Program-made: the position numbers and the translations under genes
Part shown: piece after piece, positions 3,684-28,472 of the stretch
How positions within the stretch are numbered: the stretch's first letter is position 1
Layout of the letters: every line of letters begins with the position of its first letter
The notes under the pieces: generated by a model
What the model was told of the DNA's origin: nothing
Database searches by the model: none
What the model saw: only the letters and a program-made list of their open reading frames with translations
Source of the DNA: a virus
Taxonomy: Duplodnaviria; Caudoviricetes
Virus record (IMG/VR): IMGVR_UViG_3300012347_000602
Span: 1 to 36,463 of that record
Length of the DNA: 36,463 nt
Strand: one strand, 5' to 3'

Positions 3684-4202
3684 TCAGTTACTCATGCGCT
3701 CGGGGTCTTCGCGCTTGGGTTCGATGAAGAAGGTTTCGTCCTGGTCGATGCGCAGGCCGAGGCTGGCGAGATCCGCGTCGTCGAGCTTCTTGAGGGCGTC
3801 CTTGTCCGGCTCGGATTTGGTGCGGATCAGCTCGGTGCGCTCGGTGGTGCGGAGGGCTTGCAGGACATCGTCCCACTTCCATTTCCGGTTGAGTAAAACG
3901 AGCTTGGGATTGCCGGTGCGGAAGCCGAAAAGTCCGAGCGCTGAGGCAGCGGATTTCAGCTTGCCGAAGAGGGTCTCCCGGTGGGTGGTGGCGAACTTCT
4001 CACAGAGGACAAGTTTGGCGGAAATCTGCTGGCTGATTTTCTCGATCTCAGGGTTGTGCTCTTCCATGATTTCGGCGAGCAGGCGGTCCCGCAGAGTGAT
4101 GAGTTGTTCGCGGTCGAGCTGGTGCTTGCAGATCTCATCGACGGTGACTTCGAATTGAGCGCGGGAGTCGATGGTGACGGTGGATTTGAGGCGTGCGGAC
4201 AT
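3684..4202 (-). CDS. gam: Mu Gam-like host-nuclease inhibitor (DNA end-binding)
   Basis: 172 aa; coiled N-terminus, FGFRTGNPKL, LIRTKSEPDKDALKK, LGLRIDQDETFFIEP. Confidence 0.88.
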   Translation of the reverse strand: MSARLKSTVTIDSRAQFEVTVDEICKHQLDREQLITLRDRLLAEIMEEHNPEIEKISQQISAKLVLCEKFATTHRETLFGKLKSAASALGLFGFRTGNPKLVLLNRKWKWDDVLQALRTTERTELIRTKSEPDKDALKKLDDADLASLGLRIDQDETFFIEPKREDPERMSN

Positions 4203-5434: not shown

Positions 5435-6517
5435 TTACTTGCGGCGCTTGCCGAGGGACTGGTGATGTTCGAAGGCGGTGACGAAATGACTCCAGGTGTA
5501 TTTCTCCTTGTGCTTGGCGGCGGCGGCGGCACCGGCACGCAGATGCAGGGTGAGCTTGCGCAGGCCGGAGCTGGAGAGGATGTCCTTGATGATCTCAGCG
5601 GCTTCCGGCTCGCTGGCGGTTAGTGGAGGCAGGCCGAATGATTTCACGAACGCCCGCGCGTCCTCGGCGGTGGGCTTGTCCGGCAGGTTGATCTGCAGCG
5701 TGCCACGGTCCAAGAGCTGGCCGAGTGCTTCCTTCTGGTCGGTCATGTATTTCGCCAGGGCCTTGGTGCCGACCAGAACGAGGCCGCAACCGGACTTGTC
5801 ATAGATGGTGCGGAGGAACTCGCATTGCAGGACGGCCGTCAGATCGTTGCCGGGGCGGCGGAGAAAAAGCTGATGGAGTTCATCGACGATGACGAGGCGC
5901 TGGCCAGCGGCGAGAAGGGTGTAGAGCTTCTCGCGGGTGCGGAGCTGGGTTTGCTTGGACTTGTAGCCGATGCCGCACGCGCCTGCCAGGGCGGTGATGA
6001 ATTGCACGAGCGTCATGCCCGGTTCACAGCGGAAGTAGATCGTCTTCCCGTGGTTGTTGAGGCGCTTGTATTCCTCCAGGACCGAGGTCTTGCCGATGCC
6101 CATGACACCCCAGAGAATGGCCACGGTGCGGAGCGCGCGGGCGTGATCGCAGATGGCGAACATCTCCTTGCCGAGCGAAGTCATAATGAATTCGGGATTA
6201 TCCACGGACTCGTGGATGCTGGCCCTGGCTTTGGTCAGGGAGGCGCAGAGGTTCGTTAGCTCCGCGCCGTATTCGCCCCGGAAGACGCGGCTCAGCGTGG
6301 TGGTGCTGGAACCCACGGCCTTGGCGAGCTGGTTGAGCGTCCAGCCCCGGTCCTTGCCGAGGAAGTAACACCAGCGGAGCACCTCTTGCTGCTGATCTGG
6401 AAGCTTGGAGATGACCTTCTCGAACTCGGCGGGTGAGATGTTATAGTTGGTGGTGGTGGTGGCGGGGCGCAGGTTGCGGTCGTCGTCTGGATCGGGGGTG
6501 GTGATGGCGGTGGTCAT
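5435..6517 (-). CDS. MuB-like transposition AAA+ ATPase with N-terminal HTH
   Basis: HTH TLNQLAKAVGSSTTTLSRVFRG; Walker A GVMGIGKT; Walker B LVIVDE; adjacent to the transposase. Confidence 0.92.
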   Translation of the reverse strand: MTTAITTPDPDDDRNLRPATTTTNYNISPAEFEKVISKLPDQQQEVLRWCYFLGKDRGWTLNQLAKAVGSSTTTLSRVFRGEYGAELTNLCASLTKARASIHESVDNPEFIMTSLGKEMFAICDHARALRTVAILWGVMGIGKTSVLEEYKRLNNHGKTIYFRCEPGMTLVQFITALAGACGIGYKSKQTQLRTREKLYTLLAAGQRLVIVDELHQLFLRRPGNDLTAVLQCEFLRTIYDKSGCGLVLVGTKALAKYMTDQKEALGQLLDRGTLQINLPDKPTAEDARAFVKSFGLPPLTASEPEAAEIIKDILSSSGLRKLTLHLRAGAAAAAKHKEKYTWSHFVTAFEHHQSLGKRRK

Positions 6518-6528
6518 GGGGTGGGGTG

Positions 6529-6590
6529 GAAATTTGAGATTTGAGGATTTGAGATCTGAGGATTTGAGATTTGAGATTTGAGAGGAAGAG
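6529..6590 (+). repeat. ATTTGAG heptamer array (type B)
   Basis: aatttgagatttgaggatttgagatctgaggatttgagatttgagatttgagaggaagag between muA and muB. Confidence 0.9.
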
Positions 6591-8831: not shown

Positions 8832-9239
8832 ATGGATACTCCCCGATCTCCAGCACTCGAATTCCTCGACTGGTTCCGAGAGCAGACGCGATCCATCCGG
8901 AGGCGAAGGCCAGGTCCGCATTTTCCGGCATGGCTCGCATCGCTAGAGCCGGATGTGCATGAGCGGGCGGCGGACGAACTCCTGTGGTGGCTGAGCTTCC
9001 AGGAATGGCGGCAGATGCCTCCGGACGCGGAGGAGATGGTGTATGTGCGCTTGAGCTTCGCGTGGTCGATCCTGCTTGAGCTGCTGGAAGAGGGGGTGCC
9101 AGCACCGGTGACACTGACGGAGCGGGTGACGGCGATTCATGCGATGGTGTTCGCCGTGTGGGAGCACCGATGTCTGGAGTTTTTGGATTCATACGGAAAA
9201 ACAGGTGCTAGGGATGAGATGGGGAATTCGATGAACTGA
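8832..9239 (+). CDS. hypothetical protein antisense to the early operon
   Basis: 135 aa with globular, Trp-rich composition; fits the gap between two - strand genes; the competing - strand ORF is low complexity. Confidence 0.5.
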   Translation: MDTPRSPALEFLDWFREQTRSIRRRRPGPHFPAWLASLEPDVHERAADELLWWLSFQEWRQMPPDAEEMVYVRLSFAWSILLELLEEGVPAPVTLTERVTAIHAMVFAVWEHRCLEFLDSYGKTGARDEMGNSMN

Positions 9240-9245
9240 CGGGTG

Positions 9246-10148
9246 TTATTTGAGCCTCGCGTTCACGCGGTCGCGGACGGTGGCGGCGAATTCCTTCAGC
9301 TCTAGCAGGCCGGGCTTGTCCAGATCCTCAAGGGAGCCCTGGCGCAGTAGTTTCTCGAACGCTTCACGCCAGAGGTGGAATGCCTCGCGGGCGTCTTCCA
9401 GGGCGAGTTGTTCGGGCGACATGGTGAACGGCACCGGATTGATGAGTGCGGGCTTCTCCGGCTTGGGGGCGGTTTTGAGGACGCTGGCGAGCGTGGGCAT
9501 GGGCAGACCGGCCTTCTGTGCCTGGTGGCGCAGGGTCTTCACCTTGGCCCGGATCTCGGCGGGCTTGGCGGTGAGGGGGAGGCCGAGCGAGCGGTAGGCG
9601 GTGGCGTAGCGGATGGCCGTGGGACGCTTGAGATCCGGCAGCGCATCGGCGAGCCAGGCGGAAAATCCGCGGATCGCGAGGATTTCGGGGGAGGTGGATT
9701 GTGCTTTGTCCACCGTGGACAAAGCAGACTTCGCTTCGCCGCCGAGGGATGCCCGCTCGCTGTTTGACAGCGTGAAAATCTCCTGTGCCCTGGCGAGTTG
9801 CTGCCCGGCGTCGAGGTAATGTTCCAGTGTGGTCTCGTGGCAGGCCTGCTCGTGCTTGTGGATGATTTCCCGGCTGCGGGAGATGGACTCGGCGAGGCCC
9901 GCCAGCTCGGCGGCGTCCACCTGGGAGGCGGTGACGATCTCGACATCGGAAGAGATGGGGGATCGGGGATTGGAGATTAGAGATTGGGAAGAGGAAGAGG
10001 CGGCTTTGAGCCAGGCGCTGATGGTGAGCGGGGAGAGTTTGAATCTTCTGGCGGCTTCGTTTTGCCCGCCTTTGCCATGGTCGGCATTGTAGGTGTTGAC
10101 GAAACTGACGACTTCGAACTTCTGGGCGGCGGTGTAGGGTTGGGACAT
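9246..10148 (-). CDS. HTH DNA-binding protein with a DUF3102-like central region
   Basis: YTAAQKFEVVSFV...GGQNEAARRFKLSPLTISAWLK; AGQQLARA...FSAWL...PTAIRY. Confidence 0.72.
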   Translation of the reverse strand: MSQPYTAAQKFEVVSFVNTYNADHGKGGQNEAARRFKLSPLTISAWLKAASSSSQSLISNPRSPISSDVEIVTASQVDAAELAGLAESISRSREIIHKHEQACHETTLEHYLDAGQQLARAQEIFTLSNSERASLGGEAKSALSTVDKAQSTSPEILAIRGFSAWLADALPDLKRPTAIRYATAYRSLGLPLTAKPAEIRAKVKTLRHQAQKAGLPMPTLASVLKTAPKPEKPALINPVPFTMSPEQLALEDAREAFHLWREAFEKLLRQGSLEDLDKPGLLELKEFAATVRDRVNARLK

Positions 10149-10154
10149 GGGTGG

Positions 10155-10382
10155 TTAGGCGGTTTGGATGAGGGTGTGGAGCTCGGCGAGGGTGATGTCC
10201 GGGCCCGGCAGCGGGTCGGTGAACTCGACATCGAAGAGGTCCTCGATCTCGGAGACGAGTTCGATAGAATCCAGGGAGTCGAGGCCGAGGGAGCGCAGGG
10301 AGTCGAAGGTGCCGATCTGGTCGGCGTCGATCACGGCGTAGTCCGCGATGAGGGAGCGGAGGTTGGTGAGGGTGGTGTCCAT
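10155..10382 (-). CDS. acyl carrier protein (phosphopantetheine-attachment domain)
   Basis: 75 aa, acidic; LGLDSLDSIELVSEIEDLFDVEF with Ser36, aligning by eye to AcpP [23 protein letters not shown]. Confidence 0.9.
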   Translation of the reverse strand: MDTTLTNLRSLIADYAVIDADQIGTFDSLRSLGLDSLDSIELVSEIEDLFDVEFTDPLPGPDITLAELHTLIQTA

Positions 10383-10393
10383 GGGAAGAGGAA

Positions 10394-10447
10394 GGAACAT
10401 CGAACATCGAACGCCCAACATCGAACGTCGAAGAAAGATGAAGTTAG
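10394..10447 (+). repeat. AACATCG heptamer element (type A), copy 1 of a 54-bp direct repeat
   Basis: 52/54 identical to 10895-10948. Confidence 0.95.
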
Positions 10448-10602
10448 AGGAAGAGGTGGTAGAAGAAGGTGATGAGACCGGCGCTGAGGGCGGTGCTGAG
10501 GGCGTAGGGCAGGAGGTTGATCCACGCGATGCGGCGGCGGTTGCGGCTGTAGGGGCCGTGAATGGAGAGGCCTAACGAGGTGCGGCGGTGAGTGGGATTC
10601 AT
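10444..10602 (-). CDS. 52-aa single-pass membrane protein
   Basis: Hand-translated MNPTHRRTSLG...RRRIAWINLLPYALSTALSAGLITFFYHLFL; sits exactly between two repeat elements. Confidence 0.55.
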   Translation of the reverse strand: MNPTHRRTSLGLSIHGPYSRNRRRIAWINLLPYALSTALSAGLITFFYHLFL

Positions 10603-10605
10603 TTG

Positions 10606-10642
10606 GATCTGAAATTTGAGATTTGAGATTTGAGATTGAAGA
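10606..10642 (+). repeat. ATTTGAG heptamer element (type B)
   Basis: gatctgaaatttgagatttgagatttgagattgaaga, near copy of 27902-27938. Confidence 0.9.
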
Positions 10643-10643
10643 G

Positions 10644-10877
10644 TCAGCCCGCGACGCAGAAGCCGAGGGATTTGCGGCGGGCGCTGGGGGTTTGCGCGGC
10701 GCGGCGGTGGAAACTGGCGCTGCGGTGCTCGCGGATGAGATCCACGGCATCGTGCCAGGTGGTGCAGGCGGGGGTGCCGATGGCGTCGGCGGCTTTGTCG
10801 AGCATCGCCGCCTCAAGGGCGTCGAGATCGGCGGAGGTGAGGAAGTGGGTGAGGAGATATGGGATGCGGGCGCTCAT
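10644..10877 (-). CDS. hypothetical protein
   Basis: 77 aa from ATG 10877 (MSARIPYLL...). Confidence 0.55.
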   Translation of the reverse strand: MSARIPYLLTHFLTSADLDALEAAMLDKAADAIGTPACTTWHDAVDLIREHRSASFHRRAAQTPSARRKSLGFCVAG

Positions 10878-10894: not shown

Positions 10895-10967
10895 GGAACA
10901 TCGAACATCGAACGTCCAACATCGAACGTCGAAGGAAGATGAAGTTAGGAAGATGAAGTTAGGAAGG
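10895..10967 (+). repeat. type A heptamer element, copy 2, with duplicated tail
   Basis: Same 54-bp unit followed by a second gaagatgaagttag. Confidence 0.95.
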
Positions 10968-14360: not shown

Positions 14361-14804
14361 ATGAAAACGCTCGCCACACTCATCCGCCACGCCGTGACCT
14401 ATCTGGTCGGAATCCTTCTCGCATGGTTCACCGTGCATCTGACCGCGCCGCAGGAATTGAAATCCGCGACGGAAGCGGCGAACGCGCTGGTCGAGCCGCT
14501 GGTGATCGTGGTCGGGTTTGTGGGAGTGATCCTGGCGAGGCTGGCGATGCCGCTTCTCAACAACATTTTCCGGCGGGGTGCCGGAGAGGTGAATGACAGT
14601 GATGCGGGGGCTTCCGGGGGGAAGTTCCCGCTCGCGCTGCTCCTGTGCGCGGCGGCGGGACTCATGGGGGTCCTGCCGTCGTGCGCTACCAGGGGCGACG
14701 GCGAGTATCCGGTAACTGCCTCGCTTTCCTGGCGGGATCCGAACACCGGCGCGAAGGCCGGACTGGTTTACACGCCGAAGGCGAAGCTCAAGGGCGGTAA
14801 GTGA
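14361..14804 (+). CDS. holin-like membrane protein with an internal lipobox
   Basis: Two TM segments, then FPLALLLCAAAGLMGVLPSC; precedes the endolysin. Confidence 0.6.
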   Translation: MKTLATLIRHAVTYLVGILLAWFTVHLTAPQELKSATEAANALVEPLVIVVGFVGVILARLAMPLLNNIFRRGAGEVNDSDAGASGGKFPLALLLCAAAGLMGVLPSCATRGDGEYPVTASLSWRDPNTGAKAGLVYTPKAKLKGGK

Positions 14805-14847
14805 ACATCGAACATCGAACGTCCAACATCGAACGCCGAAGGAAGAG
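14804..14847 (+). repeat. type A heptamer element overlapping the TGA stop
   Basis: aacatcg aacatcg aacgtcc aacatcg aacgccg aaggaagag. Confidence 0.92.
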
Positions 14848-18981: not shown

Positions 18982-21051
18982 GTGAATTCCGCTTCCACCG
19001 GCAAAAAGCCATCCAGGGCCGGATTTCTGTCCCGGATGGGCCAGATCATGAACCGGGCGGCGGGTCACATCTCGATGCGTCTCCACGTGGCGATGGCGAA
19101 CACCTGGCGGGACGGTTACAACCCGCTGCGGTCGCTGACGATCATGCGGGCCGTGCATTTGCTGGAAGACGGCGAGCGCGGAGCCTATGCGGACCTGCAG
19201 TGGACTTACCGGTTCATCGAAATGCAGGACGCCACACTCGGTGCCCTGGTCGAGCGGCGGACCTCCGCGATCCAGGAGCTGGACTGGGACATCAAGACTC
19301 GTTCCGAGATCCCGGCCGGGAAGGAAGCCGTGGCGAAGCGCCAGGCGGAGGCACTGACGGCCGCTTATCAGAAGATCGGCAATCTATCCGCCGCGTTCGA
19401 GGCGATGGCGATGGCGAGCTTCCGGGGATTCGCCCGGCTGGAGAAGGTGACGGATGAAAACGGCGACATCGTGGAGCTGGCACCAGTGGACCAGTGGTTC
19501 TGGGTGCGACGCGGGCTTTATGGTCCGTGGAAGCTGAACCGGAAATCCCAACTCGGCACGGTGGACGGCGAGGATGTGCCCGAACCGCGATTCCTGTCCC
19601 GCGAGGTATCCCGCCCTATCAACCGCGTGGCACTCATCGCCTTTGTTCGGAAGGCTCTCTCACAAAAAGACTGGGACGGCTTCATCGAGACCTACGGCAT
19701 CCCCGCCGTGTTCATCGTGATGCCGGAAGACGTGCCCGAAGAGAAATCCGACGAGTACCTCGAAATGGCCGACCAGGTGACCGGCGACGCACGGGGTGTG
19801 TTACCCGGCGGCAGCGAGGTCAAGACGGTGGACAACGGAGCGCGGGGGAACAACCCGTTCAAGGATCACATCGCGTATCAGGACGAGCAGGTCGTGCTGC
19901 GTGGCACCGGCGGCAAGCTGACGATGCTGGCGGAGAGCGGCAGCGGAACGCTGGGTGGCTCCGTGCACGCCGAGACCTTCCAGGCAATCGCCCGCGCCGA
20001 GGCTGCGGAGATTTCCGAGATCTTCCGCAAATGCATCGACGCGGAGATCATCGAGCGGGTGACACCAGGCGAGGATGCCTATGCCTACTTCGAACTCGCG
20101 GCGAATGAGGAGATGGACCCGGCGCAAGTCGTGAAGGACCTCGTTTCGCTGGAGGCTGTCGATCTTCAGGCGGATGAGAAGTGGATCGAGGAGAAGACCG
20201 GGTATCCGGTGAAGCGGAAGGCAACGTCGAACATCGAACATCCAACATCGAACATCGAAGGGAAGATTTTGAATCGCGAAGATGCGAAGGGAGAGAAGTG
20301 GGTGAGCTTCGCTCGGGAAACCGGGACGCTGGGGATTCCCCGGGAAATCATGCCGCAGATCAACCAGGGCAACCGGGCGGCGGTGGTGAATTTCTTCAAG
20401 GCGCGTGGCATCGGCTACAGCCGGATCCTGCGTGCGCCGTCCGACCTCAAGCCGAGCCAGGCGGAATACTGCCCGGCCAAGGTGGAGGCAGCCATCGAGC
20501 GGAATGACTCGAACCGGGCCTTACTGGTCTCCGCCGACAACTATGTGATCGACGGGCATCACCAATATCTCGCGAAGCTGCAAACCTATCCAAACCGGCC
20601 GATTGAAGTGTTCGTGCTCAAAGCACCGGCGATGCAGGTGATCGGGATGTTGCTGGCCATGCCGTCCACCACGACGGCGGACATGCCGATCCGTAACAGC
20701 CTGAGAGAGGATCTGGACGATGGCGGCGGCGATGATTTCGACGAGCTGTTTCAGACGACTCTGGCAGAAGCGCTGGGCGTGCGGTCGGAAGTGCTTGCGC
20801 CGATCTCCGATCTGATCGGCGGATTGCAGGGCGGCGGCATGGACGATGCAACGTGGCTGCAATTCGTCACGGACGCTGCCGAGGCGATACCCGAACTGTT
20901 CGATCCGGCCGATGCCGAGGCGCTGGCCACAGATCTGGAGGCCGCGATGGGAACGGCCGTGTTGATCGGGACGCGGGACCAGCTGAGGGAAGAGAATTTG
21001 AACCGCAAAGGCGCAAAGGACGCGAAGGAACGCAAAGAAGAAACCAACTGA
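18982..21051 (+). CDS. portal protein (Mu gp29/DUF935-like) with an inserted ParB/Srx-like domain
   Basis: DWDGFIETYGIP, GSGTLGGSVHAETF; insert with LKPSQ...LLVSADNYVIDGHH; GTG start after GGAGG chosen, ATG 19036 or 19048 also possible. Confidence 0.85.
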   Translation: MNSASTGKKPSRAGFLSRMGQIMNRAAGHISMRLHVAMANTWRDGYNPLRSLTIMRAVHLLEDGERGAYADLQWTYRFIEMQDATLGALVERRTSAIQELDWDIKTRSEIPAGKEAVAKRQAEALTAAYQKIGNLSAAFEAMAMASFRGFARLEKVTDENGDIVELAPVDQWFWVRRGLYGPWKLNRKSQLGTVDGEDVPEPRFLSREVSRPINRVALIAFVRKALSQKDWDGFIETYGIPAVFIVMPEDVPEEKSDEYLEMADQVTGDARGVLPGGSEVKTVDNGARGNNPFKDHIAYQDEQVVLRGTGGKLTMLAESGSGTLGGSVHAETFQAIARAEAAEISEIFRKCIDAEIIERVTPGEDAYAYFELAANEEMDPAQVVKDLVSLEAVDLQADEKWIEEKTGYPVKRKATSNIEHPTSNIEGKILNREDAKGEKWVSFARETGTLGIPREIMPQINQGNRAAVVNFFKARGIGYSRILRAPSDLKPSQAEYCPAKVEAAIERNDSNRALLVSADNYVIDGHHQYLAKLQTYPNRPIEVFVLKAPAMQVIGMLLAMPSTTTADMPIRNSLREDLDDGGGDDFDELFQTTLAEALGVRSEVLAPISDLIGGLQGGGMDDATWLQFVTDAAEAIPELFDPADAEALATDLEAAMGTAVLIGTRDQLREENLNRKGAKDAKERKEETN

Positions 21052-23609: not shown

Positions 23610-24086
23610 ATGTCCACACTCCAACCATGGGTCGCGCTGAGCGCCGTCAACCTGCTGTCCTCGATGACTCATAAAGAGCGTGAGGATCTAGGCAAGGTGT
23701 CGGTGGGCGTGGATGTGACGGACCGGGTGATTCCGATCCTGGCTGACCTGGTCAACGAGATCCGCGGTTACATCGGCTCACACTCGCGGAACACGCTCAG
23801 TGCGGATCCGCTGCTGATCCCTTCCGAGTTCGTGGCCAAGGCCATGGCTATCGCCCGCTATCGGGTGATCGCCACCATTCCCGGCAGCTACAAAGCCGAG
23901 GGGCCGCGCAAGGATGAGTATGACAAAGCGGACGCGTTTTTCGTCTCCGTCGCCAAAGGAACCATCCGCCCGCGTCCCGCTCCGGACGCGGAGGCGAACC
24001 CGGTGCCGGAGGGCAAGGCGCATCCATCCCCGAAGATCAACGCCCGGAAGCGCCGCTTCGGCCGCGACCAGCAGGAGGGGATCTGA
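23610..24086 (+). CDS. head-tail adaptor (Mu gp36/DUF1320-like)
   Basis: EIRGYIG...IARYR...EYDKA..FF..VAKG. Confidence 0.75.
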   Translation: MSTLQPWVALSAVNLLSSMTHKEREDLGKVSVGVDVTDRVIPILADLVNEIRGYIGSHSRNTLSADPLLIPSEFVAKAMAIARYRVIATIPGSYKAEGPRKDEYDKADAFFVSVAKGTIRPRPAPDAEANPVPEGKAHPSPKINARKRRFGRDQQEGI

Positions 24087-24134
24087 ACGTCGAACGTCCA
24101 ACATCCAACATCGAACATCGAAGGAAGAGAAGTC

Positions 24135-26604: not shown

Positions 26605-27059
26605 GCAATCTCTATTCACTGCGCCGCGAAATCCGCGATGTGCTGCTAGGCGGCGGATGGGAGACTAACGAGGTCCTCATCAAGCGCCGCGCCAACATCT
26701 GGAACGATATCGCCGTGGCGACCGGAGCGAGCAAGCACGGGCAGTGCCTGGTCATCGGCGTGGCCAAGGGCACCAAGCTCGGCCCGGCGCGACCTGGCAC
26801 GCGGCAGATCGTCATGGAGATCACCGTGCCCATCACCCTCATGGAGCTGCCGACCGCGGATCCGGAACAACCGGAGACGGGCGACGCCGACGAGGACGAC
26901 CGCTGGGAGGCGATGTGCCTGCTGCTGCAGGGCGAATCGTTAGGACGCAGCGCCCTGCACTACGAACTCGACTTCGACGGCTTCGAGGACGTGGAGGATG
27001 AGGACTACGTGATCCGCCAGACCACCTTCAAGACCCGTCTCATTCTCAAGCCTGCATGA
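26601..27059 (+). CDS. putative tail terminator
   Basis: 152 aa; position before the tail tube gene. Confidence 0.5.
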   Translation: MSNLYSLRREIRDVLLGGGWETNEVLIKRRANIWNDIAVATGASKHGQCLVIGVAKGTKLGPARPGTRQIVMEITVPITLMELPTADPEQPETGDADEDDRWEAMCLLLQGESLGRSALHYELDFDGFEDVEDEDYVIRQTTFKTRLILKPA

Positions 27060-27108
27060 ACATCGAACATCGAACATCGAACATTGAAGTGAAGAAAAAA
27101 CAATCACC

Positions 27109-27941: not shown

Positions 27942-28355
27942 ATGAGATCGTCGGACTGGAAAATCACGTGGGATCCGGCTGGCATCAGCCGGGTCCTGCT
28001 GGATTACGACGATCTGATGGACGGCGAGATCCGGATCTCCGGAGAGCAGCTCGCGGGGCAGGGCAAATCCGACTTCGCCCTGCGAGCGGTGGCACTCTCC
28101 CGCAAGAACGTGAAGCGGCGGCTGGAGTTCGGCCGCCGCCTTCCTCACGCGACGGGTGCCGCCAGCTGGATGGCGGCGGTGGACGAACTCAGCGCAATGC
28201 CCTGGGGACTCAAGGGCACGCTGCGCATCGAGCCGCGCGGAGGCACCGCGAAGGATTGCGCCGCATGTGTGCTCAGCTCACGCCACGGCCCGGTGGTGGC
28301 GGATGGAATCATCGAGTCCGTGCATGACTACGTGCTGAGGATCGCTCCGCTCTGA
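27942..28355 (+). CDS. tail-region protein
   Basis: 137 aa; weak similarity to 29370-29801. Confidence 0.6.
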   Translation: MRSSDWKITWDPAGISRVLLDYDDLMDGEIRISGEQLAGQGKSDFALRAVALSRKNVKRRLEFGRRLPHATGAASWMAAVDELSAMPWGLKGTLRIEPRGGTAKDCAACVLSSRHGPVVADGIIESVHDYVLRIAPL

Positions 28356-28472
28356 ACATCGAACACCGAACGTCCAACATCGAATACCGAACGCAGATGG
28401 CTTCGCGCTTCCTCGCTCTACTCTCCCTCTTCACTTCGACGTTCGATGTTGGACGTTCGATGTTGGACGTTC
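28355..28472. repeat. inverted pair of type A elements
   Basis: aacatcgaacaccgaacgtccaacatcgaa ... ttcgacgttcgatgttggacgttcgatgttggacgttc. Confidence 0.88.

Follow-up and report, generated by a model that had tools for sequence, protein, structure and literature searches.

Transposable phages of the Mu type have a variable early (semi-essential) region, in which small, patchy and exchangeable ORFs lie near the transposition genes. No acyl carrier protein (ACP) gene of this region was described in the literature searched. ACP also serves as a cofactor of Tn3 transposase activity, although no paper on this link was found in the same literature. For Tn7, the available part of PMC12372198 reports that TnsD uses the E. 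coli ACP and uL29 as host factors, and that apo- and holo-ACP work alike. This bears out the Tn7 precedent named in an earlier reading of the same DNA made from the letters alone (the sequence-only reading). Orphan ACPs are also known from phages, including ORF32 of the Erythrobacter phage vB_EliS-R6L (PMC5463345) and the acpP of a roseobacter prophage (PMC8224337); in the accessible text of these papers their function is either unclear or assumed to be metabolic. Such genes are routinely labelled auxiliary metabolic genes, with the function stated as unclear.

The ACP gene described here was found in the window, the whole stretch of 36,463 nucleotides that was analysed. It shares with the Tn7 system a link between ACP and transposition, and the window copy has the helix II acids D38 and E41. 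However, the ACP of Tn7 is host-encoded, binds TnsD and needs uL29; whereas in the window phage the link is one of gene position only, and TnsD is absent. Like the orphan phage ACPs (PHROG 5934 and 4154, vB_EliS-R6L ORF32 and the roseobacter acpP), it stands alone without a PPTase. Unlike them it lies close to MuA, its matches to the PHROGs 5934 and 4154 ('acyl carrier protein') are weak (E 7e-7 and 7e-6), and the other viral ACPs fetched fall outside its family. Among 41 ACP-motif loci from two motif scans of viral contigs, only the record of L071 had a homologue of the window MuA nearby; the 40 others had none. As in the Mu semi-essential region, the gene is small, patchy and exchangeable, and gam is present in the window. 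The AcpP of type II fatty acid synthesis (FAS) has the same fold, size, acidity, D-S-L motif and acidic helix II. The phage ACP differs by G-L/I-D-S in place of G-A-D-S, by a one-residue deletion before this motif, by not keeping E41, M44 and the helix III acids, and by the absence of fab genes nearby. In the literature searched, from which subscription journals were mostly absent, no ACP family tied to transposable phages came up. Orphan phage ACPs are known; the apparent novelty is a distinct family that has so far been observed only right before the transposase genes of phages.

The phage record and the early region

The window is a linear virus record of 36.5 kb without host flanks (CheckV estimate 29%), and the label 'prophage' in the sequence-only reading is not borne out for this copy. 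Pfam and PHROGs searches revealed MuA, MuB, Gam, Portal_Mu and a Mu-like protease in Mu gene order, which places the phage among the Mu-like phages. A Dam-type methylase is also encoded, and an Rfam scan gave no matches. The features of the locus are listed in Table 1. The ACP gene is the second minus-strand gene before muA, in the early operon as had been claimed; the 300-aa neighbour and the antisense ORF lie between the two. The surroundings consist of small variable early ORFs (MarR, RHH, DnaA-C-like and HTH).

Table 1. Position of the ACP gene and associated features in the window.
Feature	Position	Strand	Evidence
ACP gene, 75 aa, member of the Mu-like-phage ACP family	10155..10382	-	Pfam, PHROGs, profile, AlphaFold2, Foldseek, tree
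Ser36 codon, predicted phosphopantetheine attachment site, invariant in 24/24 family members	10275..10277	-	Translation, family alignment
Swappable cassette: ACP gene and 52-aa ORF (10444-10602)	10159..10656		DNA identity breakpoints
Heptamer array in the intergenic region immediately before the ACP start	10394..10447		Repeat search, comparison
Downstream neighbour of the ACP gene, 300 aa; N-terminal HTH, weak DUF3102-like lead	9246..10148	-	Profile searches, comparison
Antisense ORF, 135 aa, between the 300-aa neighbour and muA	8832..9239	+	Identity of 99% to the L003 copy; G677 prophage with a weak homologue
MuA-like transposase, 710 aa	6634..8766	-	phrog_310, alignment
MuB-like AAA+ transposition protein, 360 aa; TniB/AAA type	5435..6517	-	PF13401, PF05621, phrog_296
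Example heptamer arrays	6532-6583, 10395-10432, 10601-10637, 10896-10933, 14803-14834, 20223-20259, 24085-24122, 27058-27088, 28354-28392

The protein of the 300-aa neighbour is kept in both ACP-bearing and ACP-less relatives, and its gene is conserved directly before muA in the close clade; no homologue was found in the prophage of genome G677. The copies in the window and in its closest relative L003 have gained an N-terminal HTH resembling the HTH of IS transposases, and the linker joining this HTH includes a translated heptamer array. The catalytic triad of the window MuA is presumably D198-E278-E333, by analogy with Mu A; E278 is invariant in 41 sequences. The transposase triad is usually D-D-E, and the window MuA family would read D-E-E.

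The gene product has a carrier-protein fold

The ACP gene is an intact ORF without stops, and its translation is acidic (16 D/E versus 2 K/R) with the motif LGLDSLD, which includes Ser36. The protein scored 36.1 bits with the PP-binding profile PF00550 (cut-off 20.8, E 7.9e-9). Its AlphaFold2 model (pLDDT 89) has helices at residues 3-16, 36-50 and 65-74; helix II (36-50) starts at Ser36, in agreement with a helical-bundle carrier protein. The best Foldseek matches of the model were all ACPs, with TM up to 0.90 (2x2b, B. subtilis ACP) and 0.84-0.90 against the E. coli and B. subtilis ACPs. The product is a member of the carrier-protein superfamily by both score and fold, and the ACP with an intact DSL motif, first read from the letters, is confirmed by the HMM search proposed at that time as well as by the model. 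Helix III is absent from the model of the window ACP, where three prolines are located. Ser36 is likely phosphopantetheinylated by a host enzyme, to which the invariance of this serine in the family and the PPTase genes of host genomes point indirectly. The GC3 of the gene (0.93) is at the top of the range of the window genes tested, and its codon use is phage-like. An alternative start at 10421 (TTG, 88 aa) was dropped, as it crosses the heptamer array and the homologues start at ATG.

The phage ACPs form a family apart from host AcpP

A four-row profile retrieved 106 proteins, and the best 26 of these were taken. In the trees 22 of these share a single branch, and P0004, P0025 and P0026 were placed outside; P0021, a variant of P0020 with another start, was removed. 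Two further members came from genomes (G677) and viral contigs (L204), which gives a family of 24 as a lower bound. The phylogenetic tree versus host AcpP that had been called for places the family on a separate branch, with support of 96/87 in a careful 40-row tree (16 members) and SH-aLRT 99 in a quick 100-row tree. In the careful tree it lies near unclassified stand-alone ACPs, a placement that is weakly supported, and the branches are long. The mean identity within the family is about 51% (minimum 29%, 23 rows). L5, L8, G33, D35, S36, E47, F50, L68 and I72 are invariant in all 24 members, and D38 is kept in 23 of the 24; the DS motif is part of the profile used to gather them, and kin without the serine may be under-sampled. 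Conservation of nine positions at this mean identity indicates selection on the fold and the serine, and the gene is not a one-off capture.

The comparison with host AcpP showed clear differences. The ACP scored 31.1 bits against TIGR00517 (the AcpP equivalog), below the cut-off of 70.45. Family members share on average about 28% identity (range 24-33%) with 18 Verrucomicrobial AcpP, which are 74% identical among themselves. E41 and M44 are invariant in 18/18 host AcpP; whereas in the family E41 is replaced by Q in 11/24 and M44 mostly by L or I, with M never among the top residues. The PDEEAE stretch of helix III is kept by host AcpP and variable in the family, and the conserved family residues T4, L5, N7 and H/Y69 also differ from host AcpP. 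Part of the acidic recognition helix is retained (D35, D38 and E47). No near-orthologue was found on the chromosomes of 401 genomes of the host order (best 33 bits). Taken from the separate branch, the score below cut-off and the lost invariant residues, the phage ACP is not the housekeeping AcpP.

A class-level search of 351 genomes gave no match at E<=1e-15, GenBank phages gave no match, and five matches in a metagenome search were all unrelated ACPs or chance. Single- and two-sequence searches of viral, genome and metagenome data revealed no family context. A scan of genome contigs with a 22-row alignment gave at least 20 weak matches of partial length (31-55% identity). At E<=1e-9, none of 7996 longer candidates proved to be a fused form, which is weak evidence.

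The ACP gene lies just before MuA but is optional

Readable context is available for four of the 24 family members (the window, L071, the G677 prophage and L204; the other 20 come without it). Each of these four belongs to a Mu-like element and is located one gene before MuA. Compared with the window, the ACP and MuA identities are 51% and 63% in L071, 40% and 29% in the G677 prophage, and 45% and 29% in L204. A fifth element, the G289 prophage, has an outlying ACP (P0004, 32%) directly before its MuA; both trees place this protein outside the family, as a second independent capture would be, although a single clade is compatible with the AU test (p 0.243). The spacing from ACP to MuA is 0.3-1.6 kb, with at most one co-oriented gene between, in all five ACP-bearing elements, which are non-independent cases. 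The survey of Mu-like prophages suggested by the sequence-only reading thus revealed a gene kept just before MuA, among roughly 7-11 early ORFs per element by a rough count. In L079 and L204 the 300-aa neighbour is found far upstream, yet the ACP gene still lies no more than one gene from MuA. The 5' half of a related ACP gene also occurs beside a phage-type heptamer array in contigs of two runs of one study. A contig of run X5 has 16 differences in 111 bases from the window ACP gene. In run X2, a contig of 151 bases agrees with 10128-10278 except for one difference.

The closest relative L003 (MuA 90%, MuB 96%) has no ACP gene. Forty-eight MuA loci (47 distinct) were scanned with a 42-ACP profile and the family profile. 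Seven loci with less than 2 kb upstream and one duplicate were left out, which leaves 40; the window and G677 were chosen via their ACP. Among the 38 MuA-ascertained loci, some of the distant ones perhaps not phages and with one further G558 MuA copy left out, ACP was present in two. In the close clade (MuA above 900 bits) it was present in 3/13. On the MuA tree the carriers need four changes, compared with 3.9 for shuffled labels, and are unclustered. At the DNA level L003 and the window are alike up to 10159, which is ten bases short of the next start codon, and again from 10656 on; 10159 is also the base at which a contig of run X1 departs from the window. These two breaks at 10159 indicate that the ACP gene behaves as a swappable cassette, and it counts as an optional accessory gene in the early region of Mu-like phages.

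Heptamer arrays of four to seven copies, with two main unit types, are found between genes throughout the phage. The array upstream of the ACP start has a 96% identical copy at 10895-10948, and other ACP-bearing phages have different arrays at the same place. Related phages likewise show other heptamers at the same gene junctions, and the array at 10395-10433 is common to many unrelated contigs. The arrays may act as linkers for module exchange. Gam (3684-4202) is 98% identical between the window and L002, whereas MuA is only 59% identical, which suggests a recent module exchange.

Host and partner genes

The host of the window phage is probably a member of the Akkermansiaceae, as a prophage in an Akkermansiaceae genome has 90% identity in MuA and 60-99% in most shared genes. 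The ACP-bearing Mu-like phages probably have Verrucomicrobial hosts in general. PPTases of PF01648 gave two matches per genome in three host genomes and none in two phage records. No PPTase, ketosynthase, acyltransferase or ligase was found among the 49 window ORFs in the Pfam scan, and PF01648 was not found in the virus record of the window; the earlier statement that the phage has no recognisable acyl-handling enzyme is thus upheld. Three other ACP-bearing elements also revealed no acyl partner enzyme, with 109 of 153 picked ORFs scanned and most of them without a family. The Acyl_transf_3 gene beyond argJ at the G677 locus is on the host side. An ACP belonging to a PKS, NRPS or acyl-transfer cluster is therefore not indicated by any linked enzyme, in elements where many ORFs have no family. 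No window gene tracks the presence of ACP over three carriers and eight non-carriers, several of which are partial. TnsD/TniQ was also not found among the 49 window ORFs, so a cofactor of the TnsD type is not indicated.

MukB and SpoT had been named as possible decoy targets of the ACP. MukB was found in 0/5 genomes of the host group, of unstated completeness, and a RelA_SpoT domain in 1/5, which makes both targets doubtful there. Moreover, the available part of Atkinson et al. (PMC3153485) reports that Verrucomicrobia have no long RSH proteins. MukB and long SpoT appear to be absent from these hosts.

Possible functions of the phage ACP

The best explanation, with a probability of roughly 0.45, is that the protein is a host-primed ACP mimic competing for host ACP-binding proteins. 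The ACP would be expressed early and primed on Ser36 by a host PPTase, and the holo-ACP would then compete with host AcpP for these proteins during early lytic growth. The likeliest target class would be enzymes of lipid synthesis that recognise holo- or acyl-ACP, as the serine is retained in the family along with D35, D38 and E47, while E41, M44 and PDEEAE are lost. Consistent with a mimic are the conserved family on its own branch, the distance from host AcpP, the PPTases encoded by the hosts only, the lack of partner or tracking genes in the phages, and the place in a swappable cassette next to other small, variable ORFs of the early region. According to the accessible part of a review (PMC3896788), the E. 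coli glycerol-3-phosphate acyltransferase is inhibited by ACP in excess, with a stronger effect of the apo than of the holo form; by analogy such interference would be possible, which is not proof for this phage. However, the place within one gene of MuA in 5/5 elements is not needed for a host-directed function. The invariant serine fits a true carrier equally well, and the divergence from AcpP may just reflect descent from a non-FAS carrier. Of the earlier decoy idea, the general form remains the best reading; the named targets do not hold up well in this host group.

It is unlikely that the phage supplies this ACP as a non-essential stimulator of its transpososome. The acidic helix II would then bind a basic patch of MuA or MuB, and the protein would replace the cellular ACP on which ACP-less relatives draw. 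The constant place before MuA in all five elements, though MuAs are only 29% identical, and the occurrence of all four family members with context in Mu-like elements argue for this explanation. D38 (23/24) and the window E41 match D39 and E42, which are needed for the TnsD-uL29 complex (PMC12372198, available part), and optional presence would be expected if host AcpP can substitute. However, E41 is Q in 11/24 and the window lacks TnsD/TniQ; the gene is absent from the 90%-identical relative and from 36/38 MuA-ascertained loci, and the four changes on the MuA tree match the shuffled value. ACPs that are 40-51% identical pair with MuAs that are 29% alike, which gives no sign of co-evolution. 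Exchange between homologous flanks would also keep the slot fixed, and the five elements are non-independent cases. Furthermore, the accessible text of PMC12372198 indicates that the TnsD effect needs no phosphopantetheine, which leaves the invariant serine unexplained, and that of PMC3896788 counts host ACP among the most abundant proteins. The prediction of a complex of MuA (1-560), MuB and ACP scored 0.00 and speaks neither for nor against. The cofactor suggested by the sequence-only reading thus survives as a conserved ACP outside metabolic clusters that recurs before MuA, but not as a needed or co-evolved cofactor. A wider version is likewise doubtful, in which Verrucomicrobial Mu-like phages took ACP, possibly twice, as a transpososome cofactor and the phosphopantetheinylated or acylated protein couples transposition to the lipid state of the host.

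The ACP might instead function as an auxiliary carrier. Host enzymes would prime and acylate it, and it would pass acyl groups on to membrane or lipid A synthesis or to lipoylation, or shift the lipid make-up in lysogeny or infection. The intact fold, the invariant Ser36 and the host PPTases agree with this, and the available parts of PMC8224337 and PMC5463345 class the acpP genes of phages as auxiliary metabolic genes. A carrier of this kind is nevertheless improbable: the family is far from AcpP at host-invariant positions, helix III is unformed in the window model, no partner enzyme was found in the phages, and the gene lies among early regulatory or host-interaction ORFs rather than as a moron with its own pathway. 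We consider it quite improbable that the ACP counters a host defence as a decoy for an ACP-sensing or ACP-targeting effector, whether anti-phage or toxin-antitoxin. It is small, acidic, fast-diverging and patchy, in a variable early cassette, with T4, L5, N7 and H/Y69 unlike host AcpP; but an ACP-directed defence system was not found in the literature searched, no defence gene is linked, and the case is an analogy only. A neutral, decaying capture of a host gene is largely refuted and very improbable. It would fit the lack of the gene in most relatives and the long branches, but 24 intact members keep nine invariant positions with phage-like codon use and no near donor was found in the 401 order-level genomes.

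The family is a clean test case for the mimic and the cofactor: nearly identical phages occur with and without the gene (the window and L003), the serine is invariant, the sequence has diverged from AcpP, and the position beside MuA is fixed. If the mimic is true, the gene would be a phage tool directed at the hub of ACP interactions; if the cofactor is true, the moonlighting of ACP in Tn7 would become a selected, element-encoded function.

Other observations in related phages

Stand-alone ORFs similar to DnaA domain IV (Bac_DnaA_C) recur in early regions (L151:2375-2833, L191:13194-13562 and L002:8427-8813). The G289 prophage has a DnaB helicase after muB, and QueF- and QueC-like genes (L079:19135-19647 and L193:203-928) at the end where the window has the Dam-type methylase; 7-deazaguanine DNA modification is possible in this prophage. 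Among its head-tail genes, L192:11255-11587 encodes a small protein resembling the Acb2/Tad1 hairpin (26.3 bits, just under the cut-off of 27). Genome G558 has two MuA matches of equal score (C1:875424-877520 and 5469059-5471155), which suggest recent replicative transposition.
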